A stretch of DNA of 64,000 nt from Nitrosarchaeum sp. (GCA_965223865.1 OZ245020.1:96001-160000), one strand, 5' to 3'; shown: positions 6,765 to 43,045, numbered from the stretch's first letter. Notes: generated from the letters alone by a model not told the origin. Numbers and translations are program-made.

Positions 6765-6769
6765 TTTAG

Positions 6770-7246: not shown

Positions 7247-7473
7247 GATTTTATTTCTTTTCTAAATATCCAGTTCTTTAGTTTAGATAGAATCAAAATC
7301 CAAGCTACAACTAAGAGTATCGCAATGACTGCCTTAGTTACAGATGATAAGAAAAAATTCATTTCTCCATATCCAGTAATTGATAATGGGCCTAAAACCA
7401 TCACTGCAATTCCTCCACCAATTAAGATAAGAATCCACATTCCAAATAAAAAACCAAATAATCCGACTTTCAA
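7243..7473 (-). CDS. Small 2-TM membrane protein
   Basis: Two hydrophobic helices; overlaps the stop of the upstream gene as in an operon. Confidence 0.7.
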   Translation of the reverse strand: MKVGLFGFLFGMWILILIGGGIAVMVLGPLSITGYGEMNFFLSSVTKAVIAILLVVAWILILSKLKNWIFRKEIKS

Positions 7474-8459: not shown

Positions 8460-10586
8460 TCATCTAACCTTTCGTAATTCTGTCTTTATGTTATCTGAAA
8501 GGGTTGAGCCTATTTTATCAATCTCTGCTAATTTTTTCACAGGAATCTTTGCAAGATCATCAAGATTTTTAATTCCATTTTTGTATAGTATTCTTGCTCG
8601 TACTCGTCCAATTCCCTTTATCCTTACCAGATCAAGCAATTCTTCTCTAATTCCATAGGTGATGCGTTTTCTAAGATTTGTTAACTCTTCAAGAAGATCT
8701 GCACGTTCTACATGCTTTGATATCTCTCTGAGGCAATAAGTTAGCCAGTCAGCATTTTCTACCATTCTGTGCATGTCACCTGATTCTATTCCCAGACTAT
8801 CAGAGAGTGATAATTCAGAGGACTCTGTTATCCAAGATTGCAATGCCAAAAGGCTTCGGGAGCAATCATACTCAGATATTGGCTCTAGCAGCTCAGGTGT
8901 GTGGTTTTCAATCATTACACTTGCAGTTTCATAGTCCTTGTTTCTCATTGAGAATTTTGGAAAGAACTCCTCGCAGTTAGAGATTAGATGTAAAAAGCCA
9001 AAGGTATGTAGTCTGTCTTTTGAGACATTTTCAACTGCATCTCTAAAGTAAGTCGCAGTTAGAGGATCAATGTAAAGCATTGATGTCTTTTTTCCAAACT
9101 CTGTAGCAGCATATCTTTCACCTTTCTTTACAAGAAGATACTGACTAGATAAAAATCTCAAAGATATATCAATTGCAAATTTAATGGTGGGTTTTCTTGA
9201 CTGTCGTCCTCCAAGTGTCTGTAAAAAGAAATCAAGTATTTCTTCTTTTTTAATTCCAGGATTTGTAACAACAATACTTAGTACATGTGTTCGGAGTGAT
9301 TTGTCATCAGTTATTTTAGAAACAATCGGTTCTGGTTCTCCGTTAATATAATACTCTATCAGATCCTCAGCATTTTGATTCCCTACAATTATAGATTCAC
9401 CGTAATCATCATATTGTGGACGTCCTGCTCTTCCACATAGCTGTTTGTATTCTAAAATGCTAATTGGTCTATTTGCGCCAACCTTGGCATTGTACCTGTT
9501 GATATTTGAAATTACTACTCGTCTTGCTGGAAGATTAACTCCTGCGGCAAGTGTCGGAGTTGAGGATAATAGCTTTATTGTTCCTTTTCTAAATTCTGCT
9601 TCTATTGTTTCTCTGCAGTTTTGATTTAGTCCAGCATGATGAAATGCAACTCCTTTTTTGACAAGTGTTGCAAGCGTATTTACCAAGTCTGTATGTTCGT
9701 TATTTGCAAGAATTTTTTTTGATACCTTTTCAAGTTCTTTGGTTTCATTTTTTTGAAGAAATTGTGATATTGCCTCAGAAGCTTTGGTTGCCAATGACTT
9801 TGAGCGAATTCTAGTCTCAGCAAATACCAGTGATTGGCCTCCTTCTTTGACTGACTGCACGCCTAAATCTATAGGAGTGCCCCTAATACTTCGCTCAACC
9901 TCAAAGGTTGTTCCGTCACTCATTACAACCTCCCCTCCATCACAAACCCCTTCAGATAGAGGAACCGGTCTCCAGTCATTTTCTACCAGTTCGCAATCTA
10001 GCCATTCTCCAAGCTCCTCTGAATTAGTTATTGTAGCACTAAGCCCTACAATTTGAGGCTTGTTTTCTAATAGTTTGAGTTTTGTTAGAATCATTTCTAG
10101 GGTTGGTCCTCTACTTTCATCACCTATCAAGTGAACTTCATCGGCTATGACAAGACCAATATTATCAACCCATTCGACTCCATGCCGAATAATTGAATCC
10201 ATTTTCTCATTTGTTAGAATTAGAACGTCGCTTTTTTCTAGATTCTTTTCAATATTTTCAAAATCCCCTGTAGATATTCCTACTCTGATTTTTTTACTGA
10301 GAGGGATTTTCTCTAATTTTTTAAACTCTGTAAATTTCTCAGCAGCTAAAGCACGAAGAGGACTCAGATAAATTATCTTTCCTTTATTTTTTGATAAATG
10401 GCTCATCATTGCAAGGATTGCAATCAGGGTTTTGCCACTTGCAGTAGGAGCTGACACCAAAATACTTTGTCCCTCCAGTAATCCAGCCTTTATACAATCA
10501 GCTTGTGGAGGATACAGTTTTTCAAATCCTTCTGTCAAAAGAAAATCAATTGCAGGTTTTGGAAGATCTAACTTTTCTATTTTCAT
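8460..10586 (-). CDS. hel308: Ski2-like helicase Hel308/Hjm
   Basis: APTASGKT, DEVH, SAT, HHAGL, GRAGRP, C-terminal RAR motif. Confidence 0.9.
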   Translation of the reverse strand: MKIEKLDLPKPAIDFLLTEGFEKLYPPQADCIKAGLLEGQSILVSAPTASGKTLIAILAMMSHLSKNKGKIIYLSPLRALAAEKFTEFKKLEKIPLSKKIRVGISTGDFENIEKNLEKSDVLILTNEKMDSIIRHGVEWVDNIGLVIADEVHLIGDESRGPTLEMILTKLKLLENKPQIVGLSATITNSEELGEWLDCELVENDWRPVPLSEGVCDGGEVVMSDGTTFEVERSIRGTPIDLGVQSVKEGGQSLVFAETRIRSKSLATKASEAISQFLQKNETKELEKVSKKILANNEHTDLVNTLATLVKKGVAFHHAGLNQNCRETIEAEFRKGTIKLLSSTPTLAAGVNLPARRVVISNINRYNAKVGANRPISILEYKQLCGRAGRPQYDDYGESIIVGNQNAEDLIEYYINGEPEPIVSKITDDKSLRTHVLSIVVTNPGIKKEEILDFFLQTLGGRQSRKPTIKFAIDISLRFLSSQYLLVKKGERYAATEFGKKTSMLYIDPLTATYFRDAVENVSKDRLHTFGFLHLISNCEEFFPKFSMRNKDYETASVMIENHTPELLEPISEYDCSRSLLALQSWITESSELSLSDSLGIESGDMHRMVENADWLTYCLREISKHVERADLLEELTNLRKRITYGIREELLDLVRIKGIGRVRARILYKNGIKNLDDLAKIPVKKLAEIDKIGSTLSDNIKTELRKVR

Positions 10587-16643: not shown

Positions 16644-17309
16644 ATGGACATTATCAAGTATGACGTGTATCGGGGACCAAACATTGGAATCTACATTAAT
16701 GTCAATGACAAGTATGTGATGATTCCTATGGGTTTTGCAGAATCAAAAGCTGAAAAGCTTGCAGAATATCTTCAAGTTAATTACATGTACATATCAATAG
16801 CAAATACTAGACTCTTGGGAGCTTTGAGTGTAATGAACAACAAGGGAATTTTGTTGCCAAAGACTGCATATGAAAATGAATATTCTCTGCTAAAAAAAGA
16901 GACAGACTTGGAAGTTGGAGTACTGGACTCAAAGTATACAGCACTTGGAAATGTCATATGTGCAAATGACAAGGGAGCAGTTGTCTCTCCTTGGTTATCA
17001 AAAGATGATGTTATGACTATTCAGGATACTTTGGGAGTCGAGGTCATACAAAAGAGGATTGCAGGTTTTAATCAGACAGGAGCTGTCTTAGTTGCAAACA
17101 ATTCTGGTGCTGCCATTCATCCTGAGGCAAACGAGGAAGATATGAAGGAGTTTGCAAATATTCTAGGCGTAAAAATAGAGCATTCTACAATAAACAACGG
17201 TATTCCTTATGTTACATCAGGAATTTTGGCAAACAACAAGTGCATTGTTGTAGGTACTCTAACTACGGGTCCTGAGATAATGATGTTAACTAGGGCGTTT
17301 CTAAATTAA
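16644..17309 (+). CDS. eif6: Translation initiation factor 6 (aIF6)
   Basis: PNIGIY, ALGNVICANDKGA, TINNG, GTLTTGPE. Confidence 0.93.
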   Translation: MDIIKYDVYRGPNIGIYINVNDKYVMIPMGFAESKAEKLAEYLQVNYMYISIANTRLLGALSVMNNKGILLPKTAYENEYSLLKKETDLEVGVLDSKYTALGNVICANDKGAVVSPWLSKDDVMTIQDTLGVEVIQKRIAGFNQTGAVLVANNSGAAIHPEANEEDMKEFANILGVKIEHSTINNGIPYVTSGILANNKCIVVGTLTTGPEIMMLTRAFLN

Positions 17310-18573
17310 GAACTGACCTTGGGTCATCAGTTATAGTTTCAATGTCGACTTTGGTTTCAGTTCCATCCTTCATGTTTCTTAGGACTATCTTGCCTTCTTC
17401 TAGCTCTTTTGGTCCAACAATAATACAGTATTTAGAATCAGATGCATTGTCCATCTGTTTTTTTAGATTCCTTCCAGTAAGGTCAATGTCAGTTGGTATG
17501 TTGCTTAGTCGAAGCAATGATGCAATAGACATTGCGACCTTTTGCATCTCATCATTGATGTACAAAACTGAGATGCGGTTGTGAGTTGGCTCTGGAATTA
17601 TTTTCTGCTCTTGCATGGTAAGTATGATTCTCTCAACACCTCCTGCAACTCCAGTTGCACCAATGTCTTCTCTTCCAAACGCTTTTGTTAGTGTGTCATA
17701 TCTTCCTCCACCTGCCAGAGCTCCTAATGTAGAGTCTTTGTCAAAGACTTCAAAGACTGTTCCAGAGTAATAGTCCAGTCCCCTAACAATTCCAAAATTA
17801 ATTCTGACATTTGACACTCCTCTATTTTCAAGTGAATCGATCAGAGACTTTAGGTCATACCAAGACTCTAGTTGTGTAGTGTCAAAGCTTTGTTCTACTT
17901 GTTGTATGGTTCCTTTGATTTGTGAAAACTCTAATATTTTTTCTAACTTTTCTGAATCATATCCCTTTATCTGGAATTCCTTTAGGATTTCATCTTTTGA
18001 TTTTTTTTGTATTTTATCTACTGCTCGCAGAATATCAGCTACTAATTCTGGATCCTTTGAATCAAATATTTTGTTGATGTAGGATTCTACTAGATTTCTG
18101 TGATTGATATCAATTGTAATATTTTTGAGCAATAGAGAATCAAAAAGTCTAGATGTCAACTCTATAATTTCTGCCTCAGACTCTAGTGAGGCCTTGCCGT
18201 AAATTTCGATATCCCACTGGTGAAAGTATCGATATCGTCCCTTTTGGGGCTCGTCATATCTAAACACACCTCCAAAGGCTGAGATTTTGGCAGGTAGTTT
18301 CATTGATTTTTGAGATGCTGCATACCGTGTCAGGCCCATCGTAAAGTCAAATCGAAGTGCGACCTCTCTGTCACCCTTGTCTTTGAAATAGTATATCTCA
18401 TCTCTAATTGAGGGACCTGACTTTGTCTCTAATACTGAGAGAAGCTCAATTGGGGATGGATCCATAAATGAAAACCCATACAAACTTGAGAGCTGCTTGA
18501 AGTGATATCGTATGTGCTCGATGTTTGCATTTTCATTTTCTTCAAAGTCTTTCATTCCTCGTGGCAGTTCCAT
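17290..18573 (-). CDS. hisS: Histidyl-tRNA synthetase
   Basis: PRGMKD, LRFDFT, RYDEPQKGRYR, RGLDYY, GGGRYD. Confidence 0.97.
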   Translation of the reverse strand: MELPRGMKDFEENENANIEHIRYHFKQLSSLYGFSFMDPSPIELLSVLETKSGPSIRDEIYYFKDKGDREVALRFDFTMGLTRYAASQKSMKLPAKISAFGGVFRYDEPQKGRYRYFHQWDIEIYGKASLESEAEIIELTSRLFDSLLLKNITIDINHRNLVESYINKIFDSKDPELVADILRAVDKIQKKSKDEILKEFQIKGYDSEKLEKILEFSQIKGTIQQVEQSFDTTQLESWYDLKSLIDSLENRGVSNVRINFGIVRGLDYYSGTVFEVFDKDSTLGALAGGGRYDTLTKAFGREDIGATGVAGGVERIILTMQEQKIIPEPTHNRISVLYINDEMQKVAMSIASLLRLSNIPTDIDLTGRNLKKQMDNASDSKYCIIVGPKELEEGKIVLRNMKDGTETKVDIETITDDPRSVLNLETP

Positions 18574-25793: not shown

Positions 25794-26648
25794 ATGGTTC
25801 TTGAAGCTCTCTCTTATGGTTTTGTGCAAAAAGCATTGATTGCAGGAATTGCAGTTGCCTTGATCTGTTCTTTTATGGGAACATTTCTTGTGTTAAGACG
25901 TTATTCATTGTTTGGAGACGGTATAGCTCACGTTGCATTTGGAGGAGTTTCTGTTGGTTTGTTTTTGGGAGTGTTTCCATTGTGGACTGCATTTATTGTA
26001 TCCATCTTTGGTGGATTAGGGTTACAAAAGCTTAGACAGAGCACCAAGATATCAGGAGATGCAGCAGTTGCCGTAGTACTAGTTTCGGGACTGGCCATAG
26101 GAGTAATTTTGGTGAGCTCCTCAGGTGGTTTTTCAGTTGATCTGTTTAGCTTTTTGTTTGGAAGTATTTTGTTGATTAGTAATGAAGACACCATAATGAT
26201 TCTTGCAATCAGTGCAGGTATCATTGCAACACTAGTAGTAATGCAAAAGCAATTTCTCCACCTTACATTTAATGAGGAACAGGCAAAAATTGCAGGACTT
26301 CCAGTCACCTTGCTAAACTATGCATTTGTAATACTTGCATCAGTAACGGTCGTAACATCAATGAGACTGGTTGGAATCCTGCTGATATCTGCACTCATTG
26401 TCATACCAAACATTACAGCAATGATGTTTGGCAAAGGTTTTAAAAAGACAGTAGGAATATCCATGTCAATTTCAGTCATATCTGTGGTGAGTGGGATTCT
26501 TTTGTCGTACTATTACAATGTTGCACCCTCAGGAACAATAGTTATGATTGCAGTTGCTATTCTCATAGGGGTGCTTGTTGCAAAATCTGCAGGAATAATA
26601 TCAAAAACAGACATCAAGAAACAACCAGAAATAACACACAATAGCTGA
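25794..26648 (+). CDS. Zn/Mn ABC transporter permease
   Basis: GDGIAHVAFGG, FLFGSIL, VGILLISAL. Confidence 0.92.
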   Translation: MVLEALSYGFVQKALIAGIAVALICSFMGTFLVLRRYSLFGDGIAHVAFGGVSVGLFLGVFPLWTAFIVSIFGGLGLQKLRQSTKISGDAAVAVVLVSGLAIGVILVSSSGGFSVDLFSFLFGSILLISNEDTIMILAISAGIIATLVVMQKQFLHLTFNEEQAKIAGLPVTLLNYAFVILASVTVVTSMRLVGILLISALIVIPNITAMMFGKGFKKTVGISMSISVISVVSGILLSYYYNVAPSGTIVMIAVAILIGVLVAKSAGIISKTDIKKQPEITHNS

Positions 26649-27211
26649 AAAGTAATTGGCCATTCCAGTTCAACAAATTCAGATTGATTTTGTGCTTTGA
26701 AAGTCTCCCTGATGATTTTGATTCAAACAAAAGATTTGATTCAGAATTGGAAGAGCTTAGAGAAGAGAACAAAGAACTTAAACCTACCAAGATGGTGTTA
26801 ACAGGTTTGATTGTAATATCTTTGATGGTCTATTTTACATCAAGAAGATAAGCTGATGTAAAACTGATTTCGTGCAGATTGTAATCGACTAGCTATCAAC
26901 AGAGTTCTATTCTCAATACGTCAGTTTTTCAAAAGAAAAATTCACTGTCATCTGAAATTATTTTCGCACAATGACGTTGATGACTTGCATACATACGTTG
27001 TACAAACAGTCATTATCTTGTTCCATAGCCTCTATCGCAAAATTTGCTTAAAAGGTTGATTATAACTGCCATGGTAAATTGGGCTAAAAATCCATCAATC
27101 TAATCAGTTGTGCTATTAGGCACAACTGATCAATTACCTGCTTTGAACATCGGCCACATCAACTTTCATGCCTACATAATAACTCAAAACTACTTTACGA
27201 TATTGCCAAAG

Positions 27212-31630: not shown

Positions 31631-33274
31631 ATGTCACAACAGGTTGGAACCACTTCAGAAGGAGTTCCTGTAATTTTACTCAAGGAAGGAACTAAACAGT
31701 CACGTGGACGTGACGCCCAGAGAAACAACATAAGAGCTGCAAAACTAATTGCAGAAATTATTCAGACAAGCCTTGGTCCACGAGGAATGGACAAGATGCT
31801 GGTTGATTCTCTTGGTGATATAACAATCACAAATGATGGTGCAACCATACTAAAGGAAATCGATGTGCAGCATCCTGCAGCAAAGATGATGGTAGAAGTT
31901 GCAAAAGCCACAGACAGTGAGGTTGGTGATGGTACCACATCCGCAGTTGTCTTGGCGGGAGCCCTGCTTGAAAAGGCAGAATCTCTAATTGATGATGAAA
32001 TTCATCCTGTAATAATTGCTGATGGTTACAAAAAGGCATTAAAAAAAGCAATAGAATTTCTCTCTGAGATCACAATCAACGTAGAGTCAAAAGACAAGGA
32101 AGTACTTGAAAAGATAGCAAACACGTCGATGCAGACAAAACTTGTGTCAATTGAGGCAACTGACCTTGCCAAACTGGTGGTTGATGCCGTGTTAAAAGTC
32201 ATTGAAGAAAAAAATGGGAAATTTAAGGTAAATCTTGATAACATAAAGATAGAAAAAAAGGCAGGTGGTTCTATCTCTGACAGCGAACTGGTAAGCGGTA
32301 TAATACTTGATAAGGAGATAGTTCACAGTGGGATGCCAAGAAAGATTGAAAATGCAAAGATTGCTTTGATCAGCGACGCGCTTGAGATCAAAAAGACAGA
32401 GTTCGAGGCCAAACTAAACATCTCATCGCCAAACCAGATAAAGTCCTTCATGGAAGAGGAAAGCCAGATACTAAAAGACATGGTAAACAAGATAAAATCA
32501 ACTGGCGCAAATGTTGTCTTGTGCCAAAAAGGTATTGATGATATTATTCAGCATTATCTGAGCAAGGAAGGGATGCTTGCAGTTAGAAGAATCAAGGAAA
32601 GCGACATGACAAAGCTTGCAAAAGCAACTGGGGGAAGAATAGTTGGAAGAGTCGATGACCTAAATGACGCTGAATTGGGCCTGGCTGAAAATGTGGAGGA
32701 GAGAAGAGTGGAGGAGGATAACTGGGTGTTCATTGAAGGATGCAAGAACCCAAAGGCCATTAGTATTCTTGTACGGGGTGGCTCTCAGAGGGTGATTGAT
32801 GAGGCAGACAGGTCTATGCATGATGCATTGATGGTGGTAAAAGATGTTATTGAAAAACCAGCAATAGTATATGGAGGAGGTGCTCCTGAAGCATTTATTG
32901 CACTAAAACTTAGAGAATGGTCAAAGACGCTTTCTGGCAGGGAACAGCTTGCAGTAGAAAAGTTTGCAGATGCCTTGGAATCTATTCCACTTGCGCTTGC
33001 AAGAAATGCTGGAATGAATCCCATTGATACAATCACCCAATTACGATCAAAACAGAGTACAGGAGAAAGGTTCACCGGTGTCGATGTCATCAATGGGACA
33101 ATTGCAGATTTTGAAAAACTGCGGATAATGGAGCCAGTCAAGGTCAAGGAGCAGATAATAAAGTCAGCTACTGAGACTGCAAACATGATACTGCGAATCG
33201 ACAATGTTGTTGCGTCCTCAAAAGGTTCTGCTATGCCACCAACTGGAGGAATGCCTGGAATGGGAATGGAATAG
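31631..33274 (+). CDS. Thermosome (group II chaperonin) subunit
   Basis: [35 protein letters not shown] tail. Confidence 0.96.
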
Positions 33275-33548
33275 CCAAACGGCAGGTTTGCCCGGTTGAC
33301 AATGAATGATTCAAGTGTTACTTGAACAAGTGGGAATGTATGAGAGGTAATCATAGAACTCCTGCATTGATACTCTATCATGGAGAACTATGCCAGTATT
33401 TTGAGTATTAAAATGGACGCAGATAGATTTGCACATCTAATGCTGATTACAGAGCATTGACCACACAGAAAAAAAGTCTTACGAACAGAATTTCAGTTTT
33501 GCAAATATGATGCTAGGTTTTATTATTATAAATTAAAATCGGTCATAG

Positions 33549-34754
33549 ATGGTATCAGAGTTCGATGTAGTTCCAACAATTATCGGGGTTTTATTTTTAG
33601 TTTTACCCGCGTTACTTTTGGGCAGGCTATGTTCTCATTTTAAAATACCGGAAATCATCGGATTTGTTTTTGCAGGAATAATCTTAGGTCCTACTGCTCT
33701 AGGAGGCTTAATTCCAATTTTTGACAGACCAATTGTTGAACTAAATGATGTGATGCTAGCTTTATGGCAAATTTCTGGAATTATAATTCTATTTTCAGCA
33801 GGGTTACATTTTACATTTCATGACCTAATCAAGGCAGGTCCAAAGGCTGCAATAATTGGAATTTTTGGGGTAATTGTGCCACTTGTTACAGGATACTTTA
33901 TTGTACTTTGGATTGGTTTTGACTGGACAGTTGCAGTACTAATTGGAGCAACGTTTAGTGCCACAAGTATTGCGGTATCAATAGTAATTTTAGAAGAATT
34001 AGGAAAAGAGAAAAGCAAAGAAGGAAATATTTTGGTCAATGCAGCAGTGCTGGACGATGTTTTAGGTCTTGCAATTCTTTCTGCAGTAATTTCTTTGGTT
34101 GCATTAAATACAATTCCAACAATAGAATCTGTAGCAATTACAACTGTAACTGAAATAGGATTTTGGTTTTTGATATTACTTGGTGCAGTCTATATTCTAC
34201 CAAAAATTGTACATGTCGTTTCTAGAACACATCCATCTACTTTGGAAGCTAGAGGTACAAGACAAGGTGTTGCATTAGGTTCTGCATTTGGTTTAGCTGC
34301 AATTGCAGCTAGTGTCGGGTTAAATCCTATCGTAGGTGCTTTTGCAGCAGGTATGGGTCTTGCAGGATCAAAACTAGTAGTACAGGTTAGAGAATTTGTT
34401 GGCAGATTACAAGTGATTGTTTCACCTTTATTTTTTGCAATAATTGGTGCTCATGTAGACATCACACAAATCTCATCAATCAACTGGGGTTTGTTTGCAA
34501 TACTTTTAGTTGTAGCAGTAGTTTCTAAAGTTCTTGGCTGTGGAATACCCGCATCGCTTCTGCTAAAAAGTAAGAAAAGTGGTTTTCGAATTGGATATGG
34601 GATGGTAGCTAGAGGAGAAGTAGCATTCATTGTTGCAGGAATTGGATTGGCTTTTGAGGTACTTTCAGATGAGATTTATTCTACAATGATCTTTGTGATT
34701 TTGGCCACAATTTTCATTGCACCAATATTACTGAGAAATTCATTCAAATCATAA
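33549..34754 (+). CDS. Cation:proton antiporter (CPA2/NapA-like)
   Basis: ATSIAV, AAVLDD, GAFAAG, GMVARGEV. Confidence 0.92.
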   Translation: MVSEFDVVPTIIGVLFLVLPALLLGRLCSHFKIPEIIGFVFAGIILGPTALGGLIPIFDRPIVELNDVMLALWQISGIIILFSAGLHFTFHDLIKAGPKAAIIGIFGVIVPLVTGYFIVLWIGFDWTVAVLIGATFSATSIAVSIVILEELGKEKSKEGNILVNAAVLDDVLGLAILSAVISLVALNTIPTIESVAITTVTEIGFWFLILLGAVYILPKIVHVVSRTHPSTLEARGTRQGVALGSAFGLAAIAASVGLNPIVGAFAAGMGLAGSKLVVQVREFVGRLQVIVSPLFFAIIGAHVDITQISSINWGLFAILLVVAVVSKVLGCGIPASLLLKSKKSGFRIGYGMVARGEVAFIVAGIGLAFEVLSDEIYSTMIFVILATIFIAPILLRNSFKS

Positions 34755-34810
34755 TTTTTTTAAAAAAATTATTACGTGTGGATGCTTTTCTTAACCTCAA
34801 ATATATCCCC

Positions 34811-34824
34811 AAGCACATCCTGCT
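34811..34824 (+). repeat. 14-bp target-site duplication, left copy (AAGCACATCCTGCT)
   Basis: Identical to 40379-40392; abuts the left TIR. Confidence 0.92.
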
Positions 34825-34896
34825 GGGGTACTATAACAGCGCTCCATTTAACGCCCCCTGGATAGTATACCAAAAAGGGTCCTGATCAGTAACCTT
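34825..34896 (+). repeat. Left terminal inverted repeat, 72 bp, starts GGGGTACTATA
   Basis: Reverse complement of 40307-40378 with 3 mismatches; first 36 bp perfect. Confidence 0.95.
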
Positions 34897-34972
34897 GAAA
34901 CTTGTTATGAAACCAAACGACTACACACAACAAAAAATAACTATTCCGAGGATAAAGCCAATTCATTCGTGA

Positions 34973-35644
34973 ATGAATATGGAAACTGACCCTGATGATT
35001 TACAGAAAATGAGCGAATTGGCCAATTGGTTTGAACAGCGCAAAAATGAAATTCCAAACATAGACAGATTAATTCACAAACTTAGAAACGACCAACAATT
35101 AGGGCACCTTGTCAATGCACAATTTGTAAAACAATTTCATGAAGATGGAACTTTCAGAGTTACTGATGTTGAAGCCAGCACTGGCGATAACGATGTAGAT
35201 ATCGAGTTAGACCATAAAATCAATATTCAAACTTGGCACGGACAAAGCACAGCAGGACACATTATGGAGTCTCAATTTGACAGGAAGGGAATGCAACGAA
35301 ATGTACGGTTAGGGAACATTTCCCCGTTGGGGGGAATCAATAGTGATTTTGATAAAGACTGTCAAGTCATGAAAAAGAAACTAAGTCAATTACCTGATGA
35401 CAATTTCGGCATGGTTTTACTGTTAGACAGATTTGTTGGAATGACAATTTTTCCAGATTGGTGGGACGAGATTTCAGATAACAAATGTGTGGTTAAACTG
35501 AGTTACGTCAGTCACGATACGGGATTCGATAACGTATACGGAGAATCTGTAGTATATCATTCAGATAATTTCCAACAAATGAATAAAGCAAAAGAAATTA
35601 TCAAAGCATTAAAGTTTAATTTCAAAGCAGAAAATATTCCGTGA
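34973..35644 (+). CDS. Hypothetical protein (possible PD-(D/E)xK-like)
   Basis: 223-aa ORF; E...D.DIELD..INIQ segment weakly nuclease-like. Confidence 0.65.
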   Translation: MNMETDPDDLQKMSELANWFEQRKNEIPNIDRLIHKLRNDQQLGHLVNAQFVKQFHEDGTFRVTDVEASTGDNDVDIELDHKINIQTWHGQSTAGHIMESQFDRKGMQRNVRLGNISPLGGINSDFDKDCQVMKKKLSQLPDDNFGMVLLLDRFVGMTIFPDWWDEISDNKCVVKLSYVSHDTGFDNVYGESVVYHSDNFQQMNKAKEIIKALKFNFKAENIP

Positions 35645-35656
35645 ACTGAAATACAA

Positions 35657-36355
35657 TTACTTTGTAATGTGCCCTTTCAGTCTGTCGACGATTCTATGTA
35701 CTTCCTTTTCTGAAAACTGTTCCTTTCTGCCTTCAATAAATGAATTAATTCTATTCAAATCCGTAACTGAAACAAACCTGTAATTGGAATTGTATTTCAT
35801 ATTTCCACGGACAGATAACAAGACACTTGTGACGGGAGGGTTTTTCGGACTACGCCAGGATTTTAATGCAATCCATAACACTCTTCCAGCTCTGTCTACC
35901 TGTTCATGCGGACTGAGGTTCTCGTTTTGATTATAGTATTGGGTGCTCCAGTTTTTGACTTCGATTAGAACTATTCCTCTATTAGACACTACGACAAAGT
36001 CCATTTGTGCAGATTTTAGATTCTTTCTTCCATTGTAAGTTACGTAGTTTGGCAATTCAAAATTTAATCCACACATGACATGAAAATTATCAGACAGTTC
36101 AGATAGTTTTCCCAAGACACTTAATTCCCCATTTGCACCAGCATGGAACGGGTCGTCCTTGTTTTTCTCAAACCTGTTAACCTGTCTTTGTTTGTTCCAT
36201 TTTTTGATGCCTCCAAAAAATCCCTTGTGTTCTGCCTTTAGTTCTTCTTTTAATTCCTGATGAACTCTGTCAATGTCTTCTATTTTCTTTACTTTTCTCG
36301 GATACAAGTCAAGAAGTTCTTTTTCACTTTCAGCACGACCGTAAATTATGGCCAA
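35657..36355 (-). CDS. NERD-domain (nuclease-related) protein
   Basis: GANGE...QMDFVVVSNRGIVLIEVKNW...SPHEQ. Confidence 0.85.
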   Translation of the reverse strand: MAIIYGRAESEKELLDLYPRKVKKIEDIDRVHQELKEELKAEHKGFFGGIKKWNKQRQVNRFEKNKDDPFHAGANGELSVLGKLSELSDNFHVMCGLNFELPNYVTYNGRKNLKSAQMDFVVVSNRGIVLIEVKNWSTQYYNQNENLSPHEQVDRAGRVLWIALKSWRSPKNPPVTSVLLSVRGNMKYNSNYRFVSVTDLNRINSFIEGRKEQFSEKEVHRIVDRLKGHITK

Positions 36356-36453
36356 TATAGTGACGTTTGTATATTATTGAAAAAACGTTTTGTTTTACAA
36401 AAACCCTGTTTTTTAAAAAAGCATTTAACTCAACAATCCAAACCTCATACATC

Positions 36454-37249
36454 ATGCAAATGAAGAGATTTCGAGTCCAGAATTACAAGAAGGTTGAAGA
36501 TACGGATTGGGTAAAATGTGATAATCTAACTGTGTTTGTAGGGAAAAATGAGTCAGGCAAATCGGCCATTTTTAGAGGTCTTTCAAAACTTAACCCCTCA
36601 GATGGTGAAATCTATGATGCACTTAAGGAATTTCCAAGAAGGAGATACTCTGAATATAAAAATAGAATTTGGCCTGTGAGTAGTGCTGAATTTGAGTTAG
36701 AAAAAAATGAAATTGAAAAACTTTGCGAAATTTGTGACCCACTTAGAAAAATAAAAAGCGTTATTGTAACTAGATTTTATGACGATAGTCTGAAGGCTGA
36801 ATTTGAACCAAAACCAGATATTGATTCGTTATTAGTAAAAGATTACTTAAACTCAATAAAATCATGGAAAAAACAAATTGAAAAAACTGTAGCCCCTGAA
36901 GGAAAAGGGGAAATTTTAGGGCAAATTAAAAATAATTTTAATCAAGTATTTGATAGTACAATTGCCAAATTAACAGATGAAGATGAACTGTCTTCCGTTG
37001 ATTCTACAATAGTTAAAGAAGTAACAGATACACTCAATTCTAACATCAATGAAGAATGGCAACAAAAAATATTTGATTCAGTTATTGAAGAAAATGACAA
37101 ACTTTCAACAAGAATTGAAAAACGAGATGATTTAGAAAATGCAAAAAATTGGATTTATGAAAATATACCTCAATTCATTTATTTTGATAAATATGATGTT
37201 TTAGATAGTGCAGTTCACATAGACCGATTTATCCAAGACTTGAACAAAG
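36454..37249 (+). pseudogene. OLD/AAA_15-type ATPase, C-terminally truncated
   Basis: FRVQNYK and VGKNESGKS Walker A; no Walker B or signature motif; reads into unrelated sequence after ~37250. Confidence 0.75.
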
Positions 37250-37525
37250 ACACTATCCAAGAAAATAAATCTCAAACCTGCTGGAATTACAGTAAAATCC
37301 TTGAAGGGGAGGTGGGGCAGCGCAACATCCAAAGGAATCATTACTCTGAATTCTAATTTAATTAAGACGCCAAAGAAGGTAATTGATTACATCATAATTC
37401 ACGAATTGTGTCACTTGAATGTAAAGGAACATTCCAGAACATTTTGGAATCTTGTTTCAAAGTATGACAAGGACTATACTAAAAAGGAAAAGTGGTTGTC
37501 AGACAACCATGTAAAAATATCCTGA
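37250..37525 (+). pseudogene. YgjP/M48-like zinc metalloprotease, C-terminal fragment
   Basis: LSKKINLKPAGITVKSLKGRWGS...IDYIIIHELCHL..KEHS..FW; N-terminal part missing. Confidence 0.8.
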
Positions 37526-37537
37526 GTGCTTTCTAGG

Positions 37538-38029
37538 TTAATCATCTCCTGTCAAGACATGAAGTGCAATTAATCCAATCAATAAAAGTACCAATCCAAA
37601 CTGTCCATGCAACAACCTGTTGAAGACTTTTGTGTGTCTTGAGGAAGTGTATTTCAACAGAATTCCGCTAATCATCAAGACTGTCATTGTAATTGCCAAT
37701 GACAGAGAAATGGAATCCAAGTCATTTACAAGAAGCAGTCCATGCGACATTCCTGCAAAATAGCCAATTGAATTAAGAATAATGTGAAAGTTCAGAACTG
37801 GTTTGTAAAATTGAACTGCCTGTCTTGCCATCACTAATGATTGACCGCCTGCGCGTACAGCGTATTTTCTCCACTTGTTAAATACGATAAAAGGTAGATT
37901 TGCGACAACTCCTGCACCAATAGCCACCCATCCCAGGCTCTCTACTGCGTCTTCAGCGTCATCGTCTGCAAATACGGGTATTGGTACTAAAAATAATAGA
38001 AAAATAATAGGGAAAATTTTGAGATTCAT
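37538..38029 (-). CDS. Membrane protein, ~4 TM with His residues in the helices (possible heme b)
   Basis: Signal peptide; LNFHII, MSHGL, LLHGQ, ALHVL. Confidence 0.7.
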   Translation of the reverse strand: MNLKIFPIIFLLFLVPIPVFADDDAEDAVESLGWVAIGAGVVANLPFIVFNKWRKYAVRAGGQSLVMARQAVQFYKPVLNFHIILNSIGYFAGMSHGLLLVNDLDSISLSLAITMTVLMISGILLKYTSSRHTKVFNRLLHGQFGLVLLLIGLIALHVLTGDD

Positions 38030-38033
38030 CGGA

Positions 38034-38357
38034 TCAACTCGATTTCATCTGAGGTCTTTTGGCTTTGTAGATTTTGTATCCCGTATATGCAACAGAGCCT
38101 ACAATCACTGCAATGGTTCCATAAAGAATTGCATCTGGTATCCCTCCGCCTAGTGCAAGTCCCTCATCATCGTCATCTTCCTCATCATCTCCTCTTTCCC
38201 TTTCCTGTTCTCTTGCTTGTTCTCTTTCAGTCTCACCAAATCCTCTCTGTTCATCATCTTCATACTCATCATCGTCATCTTCATCAGCAAAGACTGTGGG
38301 AACTGTAACAACAGAAAGTGTTAGAATCAAAAATAGACCAAGTGTGAGTGCCTTCAT
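38034..38357 (-). CDS. Secreted acidic low-complexity protein with C-terminal TM
   Basis: Signal peptide, D/E tracts, TM helix plus basic tail. Confidence 0.7.
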   Translation of the reverse strand: MKALTLGLFLILTLSVVTVPTVFADEDDDDEYEDDEQRGFGETEREQAREQERERGDDEEDDDDEGLALGGGIPDAILYGTIAVIVGSVAYTGYKIYKAKRPQMKSS

Positions 38358-38770
38358 TGCTTTCTCACCCTTGTGCTTTCATGTTGCAACCATGGCTCTT
38401 TTCTGATTTGAGCCCATGCCAGTACGGAACCAATTACTACTCCTACTTGAAGTACTTTTGATACGATTCCCAAATGTCCTATTCCTCCAGCACTCATTCC
38501 GAAAACTGCAGCCATGTCAGTTCTTGTAACTGCATACAATGCAATTATTCCAACAGTTCCAGCTATTGTTACAGCATATGGAAGTGAACTGTTTGAACTC
38601 TTTAGCATCCAGACTGCAACTGGAATGTAGGCAACTGCCACAACCAAGAAGAATGGACCTTTTATCATGTCTTGTTCTTCAAACAACTCTTCTGATGTCT
38701 CTACAAAATAAACAGTAGAAGTTGCTATCATAAGACCAACAACAATTCCAATTATTGATTTTTTGTTCAT
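38354..38770 (-). CDS. 4-TM membrane protein
   Basis: Hydrophobic; YAVTRT, SKVLQ; overlaps the next gene. Confidence 0.7.
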   Translation of the reverse strand: MNKKSIIGIVVGLMIATSTVYFVETSEELFEEQDMIKGPFFLVVAVAYIPVAVWMLKSSNSSLPYAVTIAGTVGIIALYAVTRTDMAAVFGMSAGGIGHLGIVSKVLQVGVVIGSVLAWAQIRKEPWLQHESTRVRKQ

Positions 38771-38810
38771 GATACTATTACGTGAAAGTGAATATAATGC
38801 GTATTCATCA

Positions 38811-38827
38811 TTCCCAAATTTTGGGAA
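38811..38827. promoter_or_regulatory. Palindrome TTCCCAA-ATT-TTGGGAA, candidate operator
   Basis: Perfect 7-3-7 inverted repeat upstream of the 38770 operon; matches 39494-39510. Confidence 0.6.
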
Positions 38828-38834
38828 CGGTTTG

Positions 38835-39173
38835 TTATTCTGAAAACTTTTGCCAAAGCCTTACAATCTTGTCTTCCATCTTTACATGTTCAAGTTTGTA
38901 TGACAGTTCTCCATCTCTAAAAGTTACAATAATTTCATAGGTCCAGTTTTTGTAATAGCTTTCATCAAGGCCTTCCAAAGTTCTTACTACTTTGGTCTTC
39001 TTTACAATGTGTAGTTCTTCCAGCTTTCGTGTCTTGCGGTATGCAGTTGACTGTGGAATGTTTAGCAGATTGGAGATTTGCTGTATGGTGAGTTCTGTTT
39101 TTGACAATAGTGTTATTATCTTTCTGCTCTGTTTGTCAGACAACACATCAAGAATTTCGTCTGTTTCATCCAT
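38835..39173 (-). CDS. ArsR-like winged-HTH regulator
   Basis: LSDKQSRKII...IQQISNLLNIPQSTAYRKTRKL; C-terminal DKIVRLW. Confidence 0.85.
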   Translation of the reverse strand: MDETDEILDVLSDKQSRKIITLLSKTELTIQQISNLLNIPQSTAYRKTRKLEELHIVKKTKVVRTLEGLDESYYKNWTYEIIVTFRDGELSYKLEHVKMEDKIVRLWQKFSE

Positions 39174-39174
39174 T

Positions 39175-39441
39175 TCAGCTTCGTTTTACAGCCAATATCA
39201 GAACAATAAAACCTGCAATCTCGATTCCTTCTTCTAATATTTCTCCTAGTATATGGTCTTCAAACACAGAAACAACATCCCCCATTATGGTATCGCCTAT
39301 TACTATTAATGAAAAACCAACCGCTAGAAGGGCCATTGGAGGATATTTTGTCTTCTTGAATGCCTTCATAGCAAGGTAAACCAAGGCAAAACCAACTATG
39401 ATGTGAATAACTAGTATGGCGTAATGAATTTCCTGAACCAA
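39175..39441 (-). CDS. Small 3-TM membrane protein coupled to the HTH regulator
   Basis: LAMKAFKKTKY.PM.LLAVGF...EIAGF; 1 bp from the HTH start. Confidence 0.75.
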   Translation of the reverse strand: MVQEIHYAILVIHIIVGFALVYLAMKAFKKTKYPPMALLAVGFSLIVIGDTIMGDVVSVFEDHILGEILEEGIEIAGFIVLILAVKRS

Positions 39442-39493
39442 TATTTCTCCTCCATTCTAATTGTGATTCTGGATTTAAAGGACATATCTACCA

Positions 39494-39510
39494 TTCTCAT
39501 GAATTGAGAA
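39494..39510. promoter_or_regulatory. Palindrome TTCTCAT-GAA-TTGAGAA, candidate operator
   Basis: In the divergent region between the HTH pair and the Met-rich gene; same 7-3-7 form as 38811-38827. Confidence 0.55.
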
Positions 39511-39627
39511 TCATTTTTGGAGATTCTAAATTTTGATTAGCTGTTACAAAAATTTGAAATCAAGTTTGATTTTCATTAGTGAAAATTATATAATCTGTAT
39601 ATACTTTGCAAGGCTATTTTCTGTAAC

Positions 39628-40293
39628 ATGGTAAGTCAGTATGTCTGGATTGGCATTGCTGTTGGAGTTTTTGTAGCAGGCATTGGAATTGGTTTTGCAG
39701 CATTACAGGGCTCATCTCCAGCACCAGTTATGATGTCTCCTCAACAAATGCCACAGATGATGTCTGACCCTGAATTTAGGCAACAAATGAGAGACAACAT
39801 GAGCCAAAATCGACAATTTATGCAAGAGGCAATGCAAGACCCAGAATACATGCAACAGATGCATTCAACGATGATGGAAAACAGACAACACATGCAAGGA
39901 ATGATGGGTCCTATGATGAATTCCATGATGGATGATCCTGAATTAAGAGAAGAGATGATGAATACAATGTCACAACATCAGGCAATGATGCAGTCTATGA
40001 TGCAGAATCCAGAAATGATGAATATGATGAATCAGAATATGATGGGGTCAGGTATGATGGGACAAGGCAAAGGAATGATGAGTGGAGGTATGGGCCAGAT
40101 GATGATACAGGACCCTGAGTTGCTAGAGCAATTCAAACAACAAAAACTAGAACATCAAAAAATAATGAATGAGTTAATGTCTGGAGATATGAATGACCCA
40201 GCAGTACAACAGAAGCTCAAAGACCAGATTGAAGAACATCAAAAATTCATGGACGAGTTAATGAATCAGCTTAATTCTCAAACTGGTCCATAA
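39628..40293 (+). CDS. Membrane-anchored Met/Gln-rich protein (MMxDPE repeats)
   Basis: N-terminal TM; MMSDPE, MQDPE, MMDDPE, MMQNPE, IQDPE repeats. Confidence 0.8.
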   Translation: MVSQYVWIGIAVGVFVAGIGIGFAALQGSSPAPVMMSPQQMPQMMSDPEFRQQMRDNMSQNRQFMQEAMQDPEYMQQMHSTMMENRQHMQGMMGPMMNSMMDDPELREEMMNTMSQHQAMMQSMMQNPEMMNMMNQNMMGSGMMGQGKGMMSGGMGQMMIQDPELLEQFKQQKLEHQKIMNELMSGDMNDPAVQQKLKDQIEEHQKFMDELMNQLNSQTGP

Positions 40294-40306
40294 ATTCTAT
40301 TTTTCA

Positions 40307-40378
40307 AAGGTTACTGATCAGGACACTTTTTGGTATACCATTCAGGGGGCGTTAAATGGAGCGCTGTTATAGTACCCC
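40307..40378 (-). repeat. Right terminal inverted repeat, 72 bp
   Basis: Ends ...TATAGTACCCC; inverted copy of 34825-34896. Confidence 0.95.
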
Positions 40379-40392
40379 AAGCACATCCTGCT
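40379..40392 (+). repeat. 14-bp target-site duplication, right copy
   Basis: AAGCACATCCTGCT, identical to 34811-34824. Confidence 0.92.
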
Positions 40393-40668
40393 GCCATTAC
40401 GATTTGAACCACTTTTCAGAGTGCAAAATAAATCGGCCTAACTATATCCCCAGACAGGTTGTACTTCCAACTAATTTTGAACCGATTGTAAATACTTCTC
40501 TGAGATTAGTGATTGTATTTTTTTGTCTAACTACCAGCAAGGCTGAATTTGAGCTTCGTAGTTTATCTTCATTTTAATGAATATTCATCCAAATTTCATC
40601 TATAAAATAAACAAGTTTAAAGAAAAATTATTTCAGATTTAACTTCTAGTTTGACTATTACTCATTGT

Positions 40669-40800
40669 TTGAAAGAAGACTATGCAGAGTATACAAAGTG
40701 TGAAAGCTGTGATGCACCGCTACTTCTATGTGACTGTAATTGCCCAAAGTGTGGTAAAAGACAAGAGTGTAGATGCGAGCTAATGCCAATTGCCAATTAG
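40669..40800 (+). CDS. 43-aa Cys-rich microprotein (not in ORF track)
   Basis: TTG start; KCESC...CDCNCPKC...CRC, 8 Cys. Confidence 0.6.
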   Translation: MKEDYAEYTKCESCDAPLLLCDCNCPKCGKRQECRCELMPIAN

Positions 40801-40982
40801 AACTGTGATTTCCTAGATTAATAATCATCATTTCAGTCTATAAAGAAATTTCAAGGTGACATTTTTGATGTTCTACACATCTCAAGTTTTTTGCCAATCT
40901 ACCAATATATTGGATCTATCATTGGTGATAAATGGTAATAGTTGGTTTTTATTACCAATAAGTAATTCCAAGGTGTGCAAAT

Positions 40983-41861
40983 ATGAGTGATCTTAACGTA
41001 GCTGTTGTCATAAAATTAGAACCAGATTTTTCAGAAGGAAACGTAAGTTACAATCCAGATGGAACCCTAAATCGAGCTGAAACAAAGAATACTTTGGGTC
41101 CACACAGCGCAATTGCAGCTCATGCTGCATTTTATGCCAGAGTGATGTATGGTGCTAAAGTCTCTATTGGAACGATGGGTCCTCCAAATGCAGACATTGC
41201 ATTACAACAAGCTCAGCAAATCTCTGATGCAGAAGAGCTTCACCTGTATAGTGACAGATTGTTTGCAGGTGCTGATACTCTGGGAACTGCCGAAGTTCTA
41301 AAGACAGGAGTTGAAAAGATGCAAGGAAAGATGGATATTGTTTTTGCAGGACACAGAGCATCTGATGGTGAAACAGGACAGACAGGGCCACAGGCAGCAT
41401 GGAAGCTTGGATTTACTTTTCTTGGAAACGTAATTAGTTATAATTTAGATATGGAAACTAGAATTATTCGTGCAAAACGATTGATTAGTTTGCAGGGTGC
41501 TCCTGATGTAATTGAGGAAGTTGAAGCTCCACTTCCAGTATTCATATCAATTGATCCAACATACAAGTCAAGCTTTGATAAGGTATCTCAACGACTTGCA
41601 TTTCAGAAATATCAAAAAGAAGCAACAGAGAGAGCAGAGAATTTTAAAGATTATTTCAAAATTTTTAATGCCAAAGAATTAGGAGTTGATGAAACTCTAG
41701 TGGGACTTCCAGGTTCACCAACAATAGTTTACAAAGTTGAAAGAGTTCCAAAATCTACAGCTACTAGAAGAGCTGAAGTAGTAGATGGCTCTGATCCTGA
41801 ACAACTCCAAAAGGTTGTAGGAAAAATGAAAGAAGCCTTGGAGGCAATGGTGATAAAGTGA
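40983..41861 (+). CDS. etfB: Electron transfer flavoprotein beta subunit (FixA)
   Basis: TMGPP, DRLFAGADTLGT, DGETGQTG, GSPT. Confidence 0.93.
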   Translation: MSDLNVAVVIKLEPDFSEGNVSYNPDGTLNRAETKNTLGPHSAIAAHAAFYARVMYGAKVSIGTMGPPNADIALQQAQQISDAEELHLYSDRLFAGADTLGTAEVLKTGVEKMQGKMDIVFAGHRASDGETGQTGPQAAWKLGFTFLGNVISYNLDMETRIIRAKRLISLQGAPDVIEEVEAPLPVFISIDPTYKSSFDKVSQRLAFQKYQKEATERAENFKDYFKIFNAKELGVDETLVGLPGSPTIVYKVERVPKSTATRRAEVVDGSDPEQLQKVVGKMKEALEAMVIK

Positions 41862-43045
41862 TGGCAGAAAAATATCGACACCTATACGTCGTAGTTGAAA
41901 TTGAAGAAGGGCAAATTCTTCCAGTAAGCCTTGAGATGATCGGAGAGGCAAGACGTCTTTTAGATGATTTTAATTCAAAATATTCTTCTAAGGAAAAAGT
42001 TGTTGCAGTTATGTTAGGACACAATGTAAAAGATTTCTCAAAACAGCTAATCGAGTACGGTGCTGATGCTGTAATCTATTCAGACAATCCGGAACTAAAA
42101 GATGTAAGAAATACCATTTACACCAAAATCATTAGTCAGATTGCACAAGACCCCAAGACTTTGGGAGAGATAGAAACAGAGTATGCAAGTGAGATAAAAA
42201 GACCAAGATACATGTTTTTTGCAGCAGACAGCATAGGCAGGCACCTCTCCTCTACAGTTCTAGCAGAATTAGAATCAGGTCTGGCCTCTGATATCAACAA
42301 ACTTGTAATTGAGGACATTGAGATGTCTCACCAACAAAAGACTGCAGGTAAAAACGAAACCTATGAAAAAACCCTAGAGATGTACAGGCCTGACTTTTCA
42401 GGATTCTTGTGGACTACAATTCTTTGTCTTGATAACCGCAATCCAGCTTTTCAGCGAGACTATCACCCACAGTCTTGCAGTATCATTCCAGGCGTATTTG
42501 AACCAGTAAAACCAGACTCAGCACGTGAGGGAAAGATAATTGAATTTGTTCCGAGTCTAGACCCACAAGATCTCAAAGTAAAGGTAATAGGCAGACAAAT
42601 AATTGAAAGCGAGGTTGATTTTGAGACTCCTCGAACAATCGTATCCTTTGGCAGGGGAATAAAAGAAGACCCAGAGAAAAATATCAAACTAATCGAAGAG
42701 TTGGCAAAGCAATTAAACGCAGAAATTGGTGTGACCTTACCAATATCTAAAAAACCATACCAAGTAAGTTCTGCCTTGGATTCAAAGTATATGATTCCAG
42801 ACAGAGTCATTGGAACTAGTGGACACAAGACAAGTGCCATGTTATACATTGCAGCAGGAGTCAGCGGCGCGATGCAGCATGTATGGGGAATGAAGGATTC
42901 AGGATTTGTAGTTGCAATTAATCCTGATGAGGAGGCCCCAATCAAAGATGAGTGTGATGTTTTCATAAAAGGAAGATTAGAAGATGTGATTCCTCGATTA
43001 ATTGAGGAGATAAAAAAGCAGATACAAATTGTGGAGGCATCGTAA
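41858..43045 (+). CDS. etfA: Electron transfer flavoprotein alpha subunit (FixB)
   Basis: IGTSG, YIAAGVSGAMQH..GM, AINPD..API. Confidence 0.92.
   Translation: MMAEKYRHLYVVVEIEEGQILPVSLEMIGEARRLLDDFNSKYSSKEKVVAVMLGHNVKDFSKQLIEYGADAVIYSDNPELKDVRNTIYTKIISQIAQDPKTLGEIETEYASEIKRPRYMFFAADSIGRHLSSTVLAELESGLASDINKLVIEDIEMSHQQKTAGKNETYEKTLEMYRPDFSGFLWTTILCLDNRNPAFQRDYHPQSCSIIPGVFEPVKPDSAREGKIIEFVPSLDPQDLKVKVIGRQIIESEVDFETPRTIVSFGRGIKEDPEKNIKLIEELAKQLNAEIGVTLPISKKPYQVSSALDSKYMIPDRVIGTSGHKTSAMLYIAAGVSGAMQHVWGMKDSGFVVAINPDEEAPIKDECDVFIKGRLEDVIPRLIEEIKKQIQIVEAS

Follow-up and report, generated by a model that had tools for sequence, protein, structure and literature searches.

A casposon-like element with cargo genes and no casposase at a leader-associated target site in Nitrosarchaeum

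Casposons are thought to be the origin of CRISPR adaptation, and to our knowledge they have been held to be self-synthesising transposons that always carry Cas1, the casposase, together with a polymerase. Here, we report on a 5,554-bp element at positions 34825-40378 of a 64,000-nucleotide stretch of DNA from Nitrosarchaeum sp. (GCA_965223865.1 OZ245020.1:96001-160000, which is C1:96001-160000 in our numbering; the whole stretch is hereafter called the window). The element has the terminal inverted repeats (TIRs) and the 14-bp target site duplication (TSD) of the casposon superfamily and a sequence-specific target that it shares with Cas1-bearing elements, but it is without the two defining features of that superfamily, Cas1 and a family B polymerase. 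Because both are missing, we file it as a casposon derivative and not as a casposon. The host genome comprises 2.01 Mb in four contigs, is rated 99.98% complete, and shares its GTDB genus with a Nitrosarchaeum genome, not with Nitrosopumilus.

The closest described relatives are the family 2 casposons, namely MetMaz-C1 of Methanosarcina mazei, AciBoo-C1 of Aciduliprofundum boonei and NitNCS1-C1 of Nitrosotalea. Likenesses are the TIRs, the 14-bp TSD, a target that depends on a preceding leader motif, tandem arrays with a common duplication, and solo TIRs; in addition, the casposase of the window element's relatives is most like 6opm, the M. mazei enzyme. The 14-mer also has a conserved 5' tetranucleotide, which is CGCA in M. 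mazei (PMC4779613) and AGCA or AGTA here. The window element differs from these casposons in that its target is a short intergenic motif present at ~16 loci, and not a tRNA gene or a single intergenic site. Its TIR sequence is unrelated to the published TIR sequences with which it was compared, the supplementary TIR tables of known casposons lying outside that comparison. Artificial mini-casposons resemble the element in carrying cargo between TIRs without cas1, in using a leader-associated duplication site, and in repeating the duplicated segment (PMC10359463, PMC8464041). In M. mazei cells they translocate to the duplication site already present (PMC10359463), and integration has also been obtained in vitro (PMC8464041). 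However, mini-casposons are laboratory constructs, whereas the window element is natural, 5.5 kb long, contains ten listed open reading frames (ORFs), and resides in a genome without a casposase. Solo TIRs and inactivated tandem copies in Methanosarcina are likewise found at target sites in genomes without a full element (PMC4779613), but the window element retains both TIRs and an intact duplication, and its ORFs are mostly whole. The thaumarchaeal family 1 casposons NitAR1-C1 and NitNF5-C1 share with it the host family and accessory genes of the NERD and OLD type (PMC6563490). In contrast, their casposase of ~330 aa is without a helix-turn-helix, and their TIRs end in TTCTA and are flanked by a 13-bp duplication that lies mostly in ef-2 (PMC8464041); the ends and target in the window are of another type. 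The initial annotation of this DNA had linked casposons with 14-15-bp TSDs and with Nitrosopumilus, which does not agree with the 13 bp made by the Nitrosopumilus casposase that has been studied, a family 1 enzyme (PMC8464041).

Miniature inverted-repeat transposable elements and other non-autonomous derivatives are comparable in having retained their ends without a transposase and in relying on a partner for movement; the window element is much larger, is full of cargo, and would depend on an enzyme of the Cas1 family, for which the literature searched describes no natural non-autonomous derivative. An integrative element of the tyrosine-recombinase type is not matched, given that there is no integrase domain and that long TIRs are present. 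Members of the Tn3 family have GGGG-ended TIRs of ~38 bp, a 5-bp duplication and a DDE transposase, in contrast to the 14-bp duplication, 72-nt TIRs and absence of a DDE domain here. Neither a natural casposon derivative that carries cargo without a casposase nor the TIR or target in the window was found described in the literature searched (supplementary tables being outside it), and the available portions of PMC4779613, PMC6452270, PMC6563490, PMC8464041, PMC12097351, PMC13343696 and PMC9939771 contain no such description. The same literature gave no description of a Nitrosopumilaceae casposase lineage with these TIRs, leader and 14-mer.

The TIRs are 72 nt long and both start with GGGGTACTATA. 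A base-by-base comparison pairs 69 of the 72 positions, with mismatches at 37, 40 and 54 counted from the outer end and a perfect match over the outer 36 nt, and a repeat search returned the arms as 34824-34896 and 40307-40379 (73 nt, 96%). Abutting both TIRs is an exact 14-bp direct repeat, which would be read as 19 bp if the TIR-end bases common to both sides are counted; the boundary is formally ambiguous by these few bases. Both the TIRs, with their three mismatches and perfect outer 36 bp, and the exact direct repeat had been described in the initial annotation and are confirmed. Approximately 8e-12 exact 36-nt inverted pairs are expected by chance in the window, the chance probability of identical 14-mers at a given end pair is ~1e-8, and the longest exact inverted repeat measures 37 nt as against 16-22 nt in 10 shuffles. 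The TIRs and duplication are therefore far beyond chance expectation, and chance is no explanation for them. G+C content is 36.5% in the element and 35.4% in the window. The perfect duplication and the 96% TIR identity suggest that the insertion may be recent. The boundaries are arranged as follows.

34811-34824, no strand: TSD copy far from the leader (AAGCACATCCTGCT), an exact copy of 40379-40392
34825-34896, plus strand: TIR at the end far from the leader, 72 nt, 69/72 against the other arm, outer 36 perfect
40307-40378, minus strand: TIR at the leader-side end, 92-95% identical to TIR copies in metagenome loci L110, L121, L178 and L188
40379-40392, no strand: TSD copy next to the leader (AGCAGGATGTGCTT on the minus strand), in agreement with the family 14-mer consensus at 10/14 positions, both copies identical

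The target is composed of a leader motif (GGTTCAAAT..GG) and, directly after it, the 14-mer that was duplicated, and both belong to the consensus that flanks Cas1-bearing TIR elements in three relatives: two elements in G332 and one each in G233 and G030. The sequence TATATCCCC forms the end of the left flank, directly before the 14-mer, and a second copy of the motif is located 60 nt to the right of the element. Although the 14-mer of the element is off the consensus at four of 14 positions, its two copies are identical, which speaks for a true duplication and against a pair of consensus sites. Read along the minus strand, the order is second leader, 14-mer, solo TIR, leader, 14-mer, element, 14-mer, degenerate TIR and antiporter gene, and the parts outside the element are these.

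40466-40484, minus strand: second leader, assigned from sequence
40452-40465, minus strand: 14-mer of the solo TIR, assigned from sequence
40413-40451, minus strand: solo TIR of the family type (nhmmer E 6.6e-14 at C1:136486-136414)
40393-40412, minus strand: leader of the element's target, GTGGTTCAAATCGTAATGGC on the minus strand, with motif and spacing as upstream of the Cas1-bearing elements in G332, G233 and G030
34770-34810, minus strand: degenerate TIR of the family type, belonging to an older element and situated beyond the leader-distal end (nhmmer family profile at C1:130828-130771, which is window 34828-34771, E 0.006)
33549-34754: CPA2 antiporter gene, in the older element

Deleting the element together with one 14-mer leaves an ordinary member of the repeat family, with a complete leader-14-mer-older-TIR site. 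We conclude that the element is the leader-nearest insertion of a small array, with the antiporter gene in the array's older member. This order fits that of casposon tandem arrays, in which the newest insert lies next to the leader and older, decayed ones lie beyond it (PMC4779613, PMC6563490). Rfam has nothing in 33000-42000 at E<=1 and the nearest tRNA is at 15227, indicating that the leader is not a recognised RNA gene. In G030, a genome of the same genus, the orthologue of the antiporter gene is separated by 190 nt from a leader-14-mer-TIR end, on the inner side of that end, and by ~4 kb from a Cas1 fragment, and the homologous site, its ETF-side leader, is occupied by a different TIR element of ~10 kb that has one truncated end and contains homologues of the membrane proteins described below. 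Three CPA2 antiporter paralogues of the host genome each adjoin a TIR repeat of the casposon family; the loci concerned are window 33549-34754, C1 ~775.9-777.1 kb and ~486.2-486.5 kb, and L061 ~17150-17440, and antiporter genes may be recurrent cargo of such elements. Between the second leader and the ETF genes, window 40651-40800 contains a Cys-rich ORF of 49 aa with CxxC pairs.

The link between this repeat family and Cas1 is observed directly in four TIR-bounded elements, three of which have an exact 14-bp duplication.

G332 element A: ~21.0 kb, 14-mer AGCACAACGTGCAT exact at both ends, Cas1 of 409 aa
G332 element B: ~21.6 kb, 14-mer AGCACAATGGGTAT exact at both ends, Cas1 present (418-aa open frame)
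G030 element (genus of the window): 10.9 kb, 14-mer AGCACAACGTGTAT exact at both ends, Cas1 a 190-aa C-terminal remnant
G233 element: delimited in part, far-end 14-mer inverted, Cas1 1.6 kb inside the leader-side end

The G332 Cas1 can be aligned through residues 2-397 with 6opm, the casposase of M. mazei (E 6.5e-70). The G030 remnant shows 81% identity to the last 188 residues of the G332 enzyme, and identity between the G332 enzyme and the 331-aa family 1 Cas1 of G003 is only 28%. To judge from these alignments, the Cas1 proteins of the linked elements are family-2-type casposases. Among the 401 genomes of the host's family that were searched, Cas1 is present in 139, including four of the six other genomes of the genus (a count that takes in the unpublished genomes G205, G257, G259, G092, G077 and G339), and the repeat family is present in 24, from 5 of 27 genera (a count that takes in the unpublished G259). 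Cas1 was found in 19 of 23 relatives with the TIR family as against 120 of 377 others, a comparison in which kin are not independent and which assumes the same genomes in both searches, as their handles suggest. Directly behind element A of G332 lies a TIR-bounded unit of 5.3 kb (L068 ~4491-9828), followed by a third TIR start. Its 14-mers are like those of A at 13/14 positions, and no Cas1 domain is found in its 7 ORFs of at least 70 aa. Elsewhere, in G268 (L063 15140-17540), a 367-aa Cas1 gene is located 1.5 kb outside a family TIR on the leader side, an arrangement with no simple fit. Family 1 casposons are also present in the genus of the window, at L058 6972-12896 (G003), where the ef-2 gene (730 aa) is directly followed by the 331-aa Cas1 and a NERD gene, and at L059 9583-18394 (G054), where Cas1 lies between two 49-nt TIRs that have a TTCTA end and the repeat is ~13-16 bp.

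In the host genome, the family TIR belongs to a dispersed repeat. A profile of it (14 copies) gives 22 matches at ~16 loci, and beyond the two complete elements there are ~14 leader-14-mer-TIR loci, solo or paired. The leader of these copies is GGTTCAAATTTGA plus a few bases, ending in GG, the 14-mer has a consensus near AGCACAACGTGCAT, and the end is ~42 nt long, starts with GGGGATATAGTTA and has CCCACGTGGAA near position 30; some copies are arranged back to back, with one 14-mer between two ends. Promoter, origin-recognition box and independent palindromic miniature element were considered as identities for the dispersed repeat and dropped, as complete Cas1-bearing elements share its ends. 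When inverted repeats with GGG/CCC ends were scanned for identical 14-mers on their outer sides, two elements were returned, the one in the window and a unit of 11.7 kb (C1:1337346-1349068; L027 1847-13569) that is also casposase-less and has 40-nt TIRs (78%) and the repeat ATACACGTTGTGCT. The ten largest ORFs of the latter contain no transposase family, and the products of its metabolic and regulatory cargo include an exosortase-like protein, an alpha/beta hydrolase, an Fe-S/SCP2 protein, HxlR and TetR regulators, a beta-lactamase-fold protein and an FAD monooxygenase. On the minus strand at C1:650181-650304, a leader and the 14-mer AGCACAGCATGTAT precede a 93-bp insert in which no TIRs are recognisable; a second copy of the 14-mer and a degenerate TIR-like start come next. 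The layout of this insert (C1:650181-650273) resembles repeat-spacer-repeat, and 66 nt of it are 89% alike at C1:1877820-1877885. Contig C4 (11,096 bp) contains at least four head-to-tail copies of a ~2.58-kb unit. Within the window, at 26647-26739 (minus strand) in the spacer after a ZnuB-like gene, a stretch of 29 residues matches residues 50-78 of the G332 casposase at 66% identity (E 4e-4, one genome); it could be all that is left of a cas1 gene, or the match could be fortuitous.

The window TIR and the family TIR have in common the terminal GGGG, a TA-rich 13-mer and a CCCnCnTGGA box near position 30, and differ in the rest, such that the window TIR may be regarded as a diverged subtype of the family TIR. 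In the host genome the subtype is found only at the two ends of the element, the interior of which is single-copy. Outside it, metagenome contigs L110, L121, L178 and L188 carry the subtype at 92-95% over the TIR (82-95% when longer stretches into the flanks are included), and a variant is present in L104 and at G030:138586. With a loose pattern, five of 120 metagenome loci among the matches listed have the window-type TIR; the other 115 were dropped after BLAST and context checks as chance or other-repeat matches and are unrelated. A strict TIR pattern hits only G030 among genome contigs, and viral contigs have 0 matches to either TIR type. In L178 and L104, leader and 14-mer stand beside the window-type end, and in L188 and G030 the window-type end comes after a family TIR and 14-mer. 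Two sludge-type runs contain a contig with a window-type end, then the 14-mer, then a family TIR; in sludge runs the NERD-ATPase stretch 35656-37251 also recurs at ~97% identity with other flanks (the runs of studies P1 and P2 are perhaps one data set filed twice). Ends identical in type thus enclose different interiors at different sites in L110, L121, L178, L188, L104, G030 and the sludge contigs, with different flanks as well. An identical unit at two or more sites was not found, and only parts of the interior recur elsewhere. Cas1 was not seen beside a window-type TIR, the metagenome contigs giving 0.4-1.1 kb of interior. A search for a Cas1 locus with similar TIRs, as suggested in the initial annotation, gave none with the exact subtype but did give Cas1 elements with the family TIR.

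The ten listed ORFs cover 90.6% of the element; eight are without sign of truncation and two are gene fragments.

34973-35644, plus strand: ORF1, 223 aa, no family in Pfam, PHROGs, PADLOC or NCBIfam
35657-36355, minus strand: NERD-domain nuclease gene, 232 aa, apparently intact (PF08378, E 1.1e-11)
36367-37356, plus strand: AAA_15/AriA/OLD-like ATPase gene, truncated, N-terminal part only (AAA_15 1-224/374; AriA 1-283/373)
37301-37525, plus strand: YgjP-like metallopeptidase gene, C-terminal fragment (PF01863 positions 139-206/207 only, E 4.9e-27)
37538-38770, minus strand: three small membrane-protein genes (163, 107 and 138 aa), sub-threshold Pfam matches only
38835-39173, minus strand: ArsR/SmtB-type winged-helix regulator gene (PF01022, E 5.9e-7; NF033788 metalloregulator below cut-off)
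39175-39441, minus strand: gene for a DUF7521 small membrane protein (PF24365, E 6.5e-11)
39628-40293, plus strand: gene for a Met/Gln-rich protein, 221 aa (20.8% Met, 14.9% Gln), no family above cut-off

No Pfam match to Cas1, PolB, a DDE or other transposase, or an integrase was obtained for these ORFs at E<=0.1, in line with the initial annotation, which had noticed no ORF resembling Cas1, PolB or a DDE transposase. The NERD protein is 51% identical to one encoded 1.5 kb from Cas1 in G003 and 55% identical to one encoded beside a Cas1 fragment in G073, and the membrane-protein stretch has 77% nucleotide identity to parts of leader-TIR-bounded elements in G073 and G030. The ATPase is cut after about three quarters of its profile and runs into the last third of the YgjP-like gene, and sludge-run contigs that are ~97% alike over the ATPase region diverge after 37251; the junction of the two fragments is a deletion scar. 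ORF1 occurs in 9 of the 401 genomes, the host counted, and has 16 proteins in a large collection, its own entry included, none of which is informatively named. Twelve homologues scanned singly gave no family in the same four databases, a PDB profile search gave chance-level matches only, and the Atlas placed it in unnamed clusters, under 0.9. Neither a leader nor a TIR motif lies within ~10 kb of its homologues in G169 and G144, and ORF1 is not found in the other TIR-bounded elements examined. The cargo falls into two modules, one of nuclease and ATPase (ORF1, NERD, ATPase) and one of ArsR-linked membrane and Met-rich proteins. It had been proposed that the cargo serves metal stress and defence, a proposal supported in part. 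The ArsR/SmtB regulator, the 20.8%-Met protein, the membrane proteins, the NERD gene and the truncated ATPase are indeed present; we infer a metal role for the right-hand module, and likewise a defence role for the left-hand one, from family names and composition.

In the explanation that we favour, a family-2-type casposase, that is, a Cas1 homologue with a C-terminal helix-turn-helix, would have joined the GGGG-ended termini to the borders of a 14-bp segment situated directly after a short leader motif, and repair of the 14-nt stagger would have produced the duplication. The unit most likely arrived without cas1 and a polymerase gene, the enzyme being supplied in trans by an autonomous relative, and subsequent loss of that relative from the lineage would have left the element immobile. 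That a casposase made the insertion we consider very probable. That the element is a casposon-derived cargo unit, which arrived casposase-less, was integrated in trans and is now stranded, we put at roughly 0.55. The core of the initial annotation, a casposon-type element with cargo and no casposase, is supported by the leader and 14-mer held in common with Cas1-bearing elements, by the family-2-type Cas1 of relatives, and by the NERD homologues beside Cas1. Its further proposal, mobilisation in trans, is one that we also infer, and because laboratory mini-casposons without cas1 integrate and translocate, supply in trans is mechanistically plausible.

Several results weigh against this explanation. 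The host genome has no Cas1 (PF01867, 0 matches) and thus no autonomous partner, and a search of it with the G332 casposase gave three short weak matches, none inside the element. No Cas1-bearing element with the window TIR subtype was found, and BLAST of the window TIR against 400 genomes of the family gave no match outside the host at E<=0.001. No empty site was found in relatives or runs, the genomes of the same genus being without the antiporter-ETF synteny. The far-end 14-mer of G233 is inverted and not direct. Pfam sees no family B polymerase in the Cas1-bearing relatives examined, and their status as classical casposons is therefore incomplete; for a 944-aa ORF of G332 A, searches of Pfam, PHROGs and the PDB gave nothing. 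ORF1 is without an assigned fold or family. Finally, the scar in the interior shows that deletions did occur in this lineage and is compatible as well with cas1 having been lost in place, a kind of loss of which G030, with half of its Cas1 deleted, is an instance.

The last two points bear on a possible but less probable history, in which an autonomous casposon was inserted by its own casposase, had cas1 and any polymerase gene removed by a subsequent internal deletion at this site, and was at no time mobilised in trans. The truncated ATPase joined to the last third of the YgjP-like gene, with an undeleted continuation after 37251 in sludge contigs, is what such a history would leave, and G030 shows the process under way, with the C-terminal 190 residues of Cas1 enclosed by intact TIRs and duplication. 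NERD- and OLD-type genes are, moreover, typical accessory genes of full casposons (PMC6563490), and at 5.55 kb the element is short compared with the 10.9-21.6 kb of its Cas1-bearing relatives. However, no remnant of cas1 is found inside the element, the ten ORFs fill most of it with eight showing no truncation, the TIR subtype encloses unrelated interiors in at least five other contexts with no Cas1 in 0.4-1.1 kb, and in G332 a casposase-less unit stands in tandem with a Cas1-bearing one. Arrival of the unit without cas1 is preferred.

The remaining explanations are far less probable. It is improbable that the element, instead of having been inserted as one unit, is ordinary chromosomal DNA caught between two solo TIRs of independent origin, or DNA that recombination or inversion between copies of the TIR has rearranged. 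The genome does offer ~16 family-TIR loci, several back to back, with a conserved 14-mer such that similar 14-mers can flank unrelated copies, and the inverted 14-mer of G233 suggests that inversions occur; but both TIRs here are of a rare subtype that is nowhere else in the genome and are 96% alike, the 14-mers are identical in spite of being off the consensus at four positions, and the flanks reconstruct one complete leader-14-mer-older-TIR site. About as little can be said for an enzyme other than Cas1, be it an unrecognised enzyme such as ORF1, a tyrosine recombinase acting on an att core of 14-19 bp, or a Tn3-like transposase. ORF1 is without an assignable family, the direct repeat can be read as 19 bp, and a tyrosine-recombinase gene lies beside the Cas1 fragment of G073. 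Yet Tn3-type duplications are 5 bp, the element has no integrase or DDE domain, ORF1 homologues in G169 and G144 occur away from leader and TIR, ORF1 is missing from the other elements examined, and TIR, 14-bp duplication and leader travel with Cas1 in four elements of three genomes. An assembly artefact at one or both junctions is the least credible of all. In source-like runs X12 and X13, contigs cover both junctions with 0 mismatches (left, 34649-34853 in X12; right, 40350-40900 in X12 and 40350-40654 in X13), no contig in four runs skips the element or joins across it, and the layout of TIR, 14-mer and leader recurs in independent metagenome contigs. What might favour an artefact is that these contigs enter the TIR by 29 nt only and none spans a junction with 31 nt on each side of it, which is because short-read contigs break at the perfect 36-nt repeat; a check for an artefact at either junction thus gave no sign of one, although no contig forms a full bridge.

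More tentatively, and with the odds against it, a family-2-type casposase and the leader/14-mer target may constitute a site-specific cassette platform in ammonia-oxidising archaea, in which casposase-less units are stacked at many leader sites. The stacked units would be separated by the repeated 14-mer and may range from the ~5 to 12 kb seen here down, perhaps, to the 93-bp insert. If so, arrays of leader, repeat, insert and repeat would link the tandem arrays of casposons with CRISPR arrays as natural intermediates, and would provide a route for the spread of antiporter, metal-handling and defence genes in these archaea. The two TIR subtypes, the leader and the 14-mer consensus supply testable sequences for a Nitrosopumilaceae casposase lineage, and the window element offers a natural counterpart of the mini-casposons. 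If it is indeed a natural casposase-less derivative, Cas1-type integrases can move foreign gene sets in nature, as mini-casposons suggested; arrays of inserts separated by a repeated target segment would then arise without CRISPR, and Cas1-type integrases could shape the accessory genomes of ammonia oxidisers.

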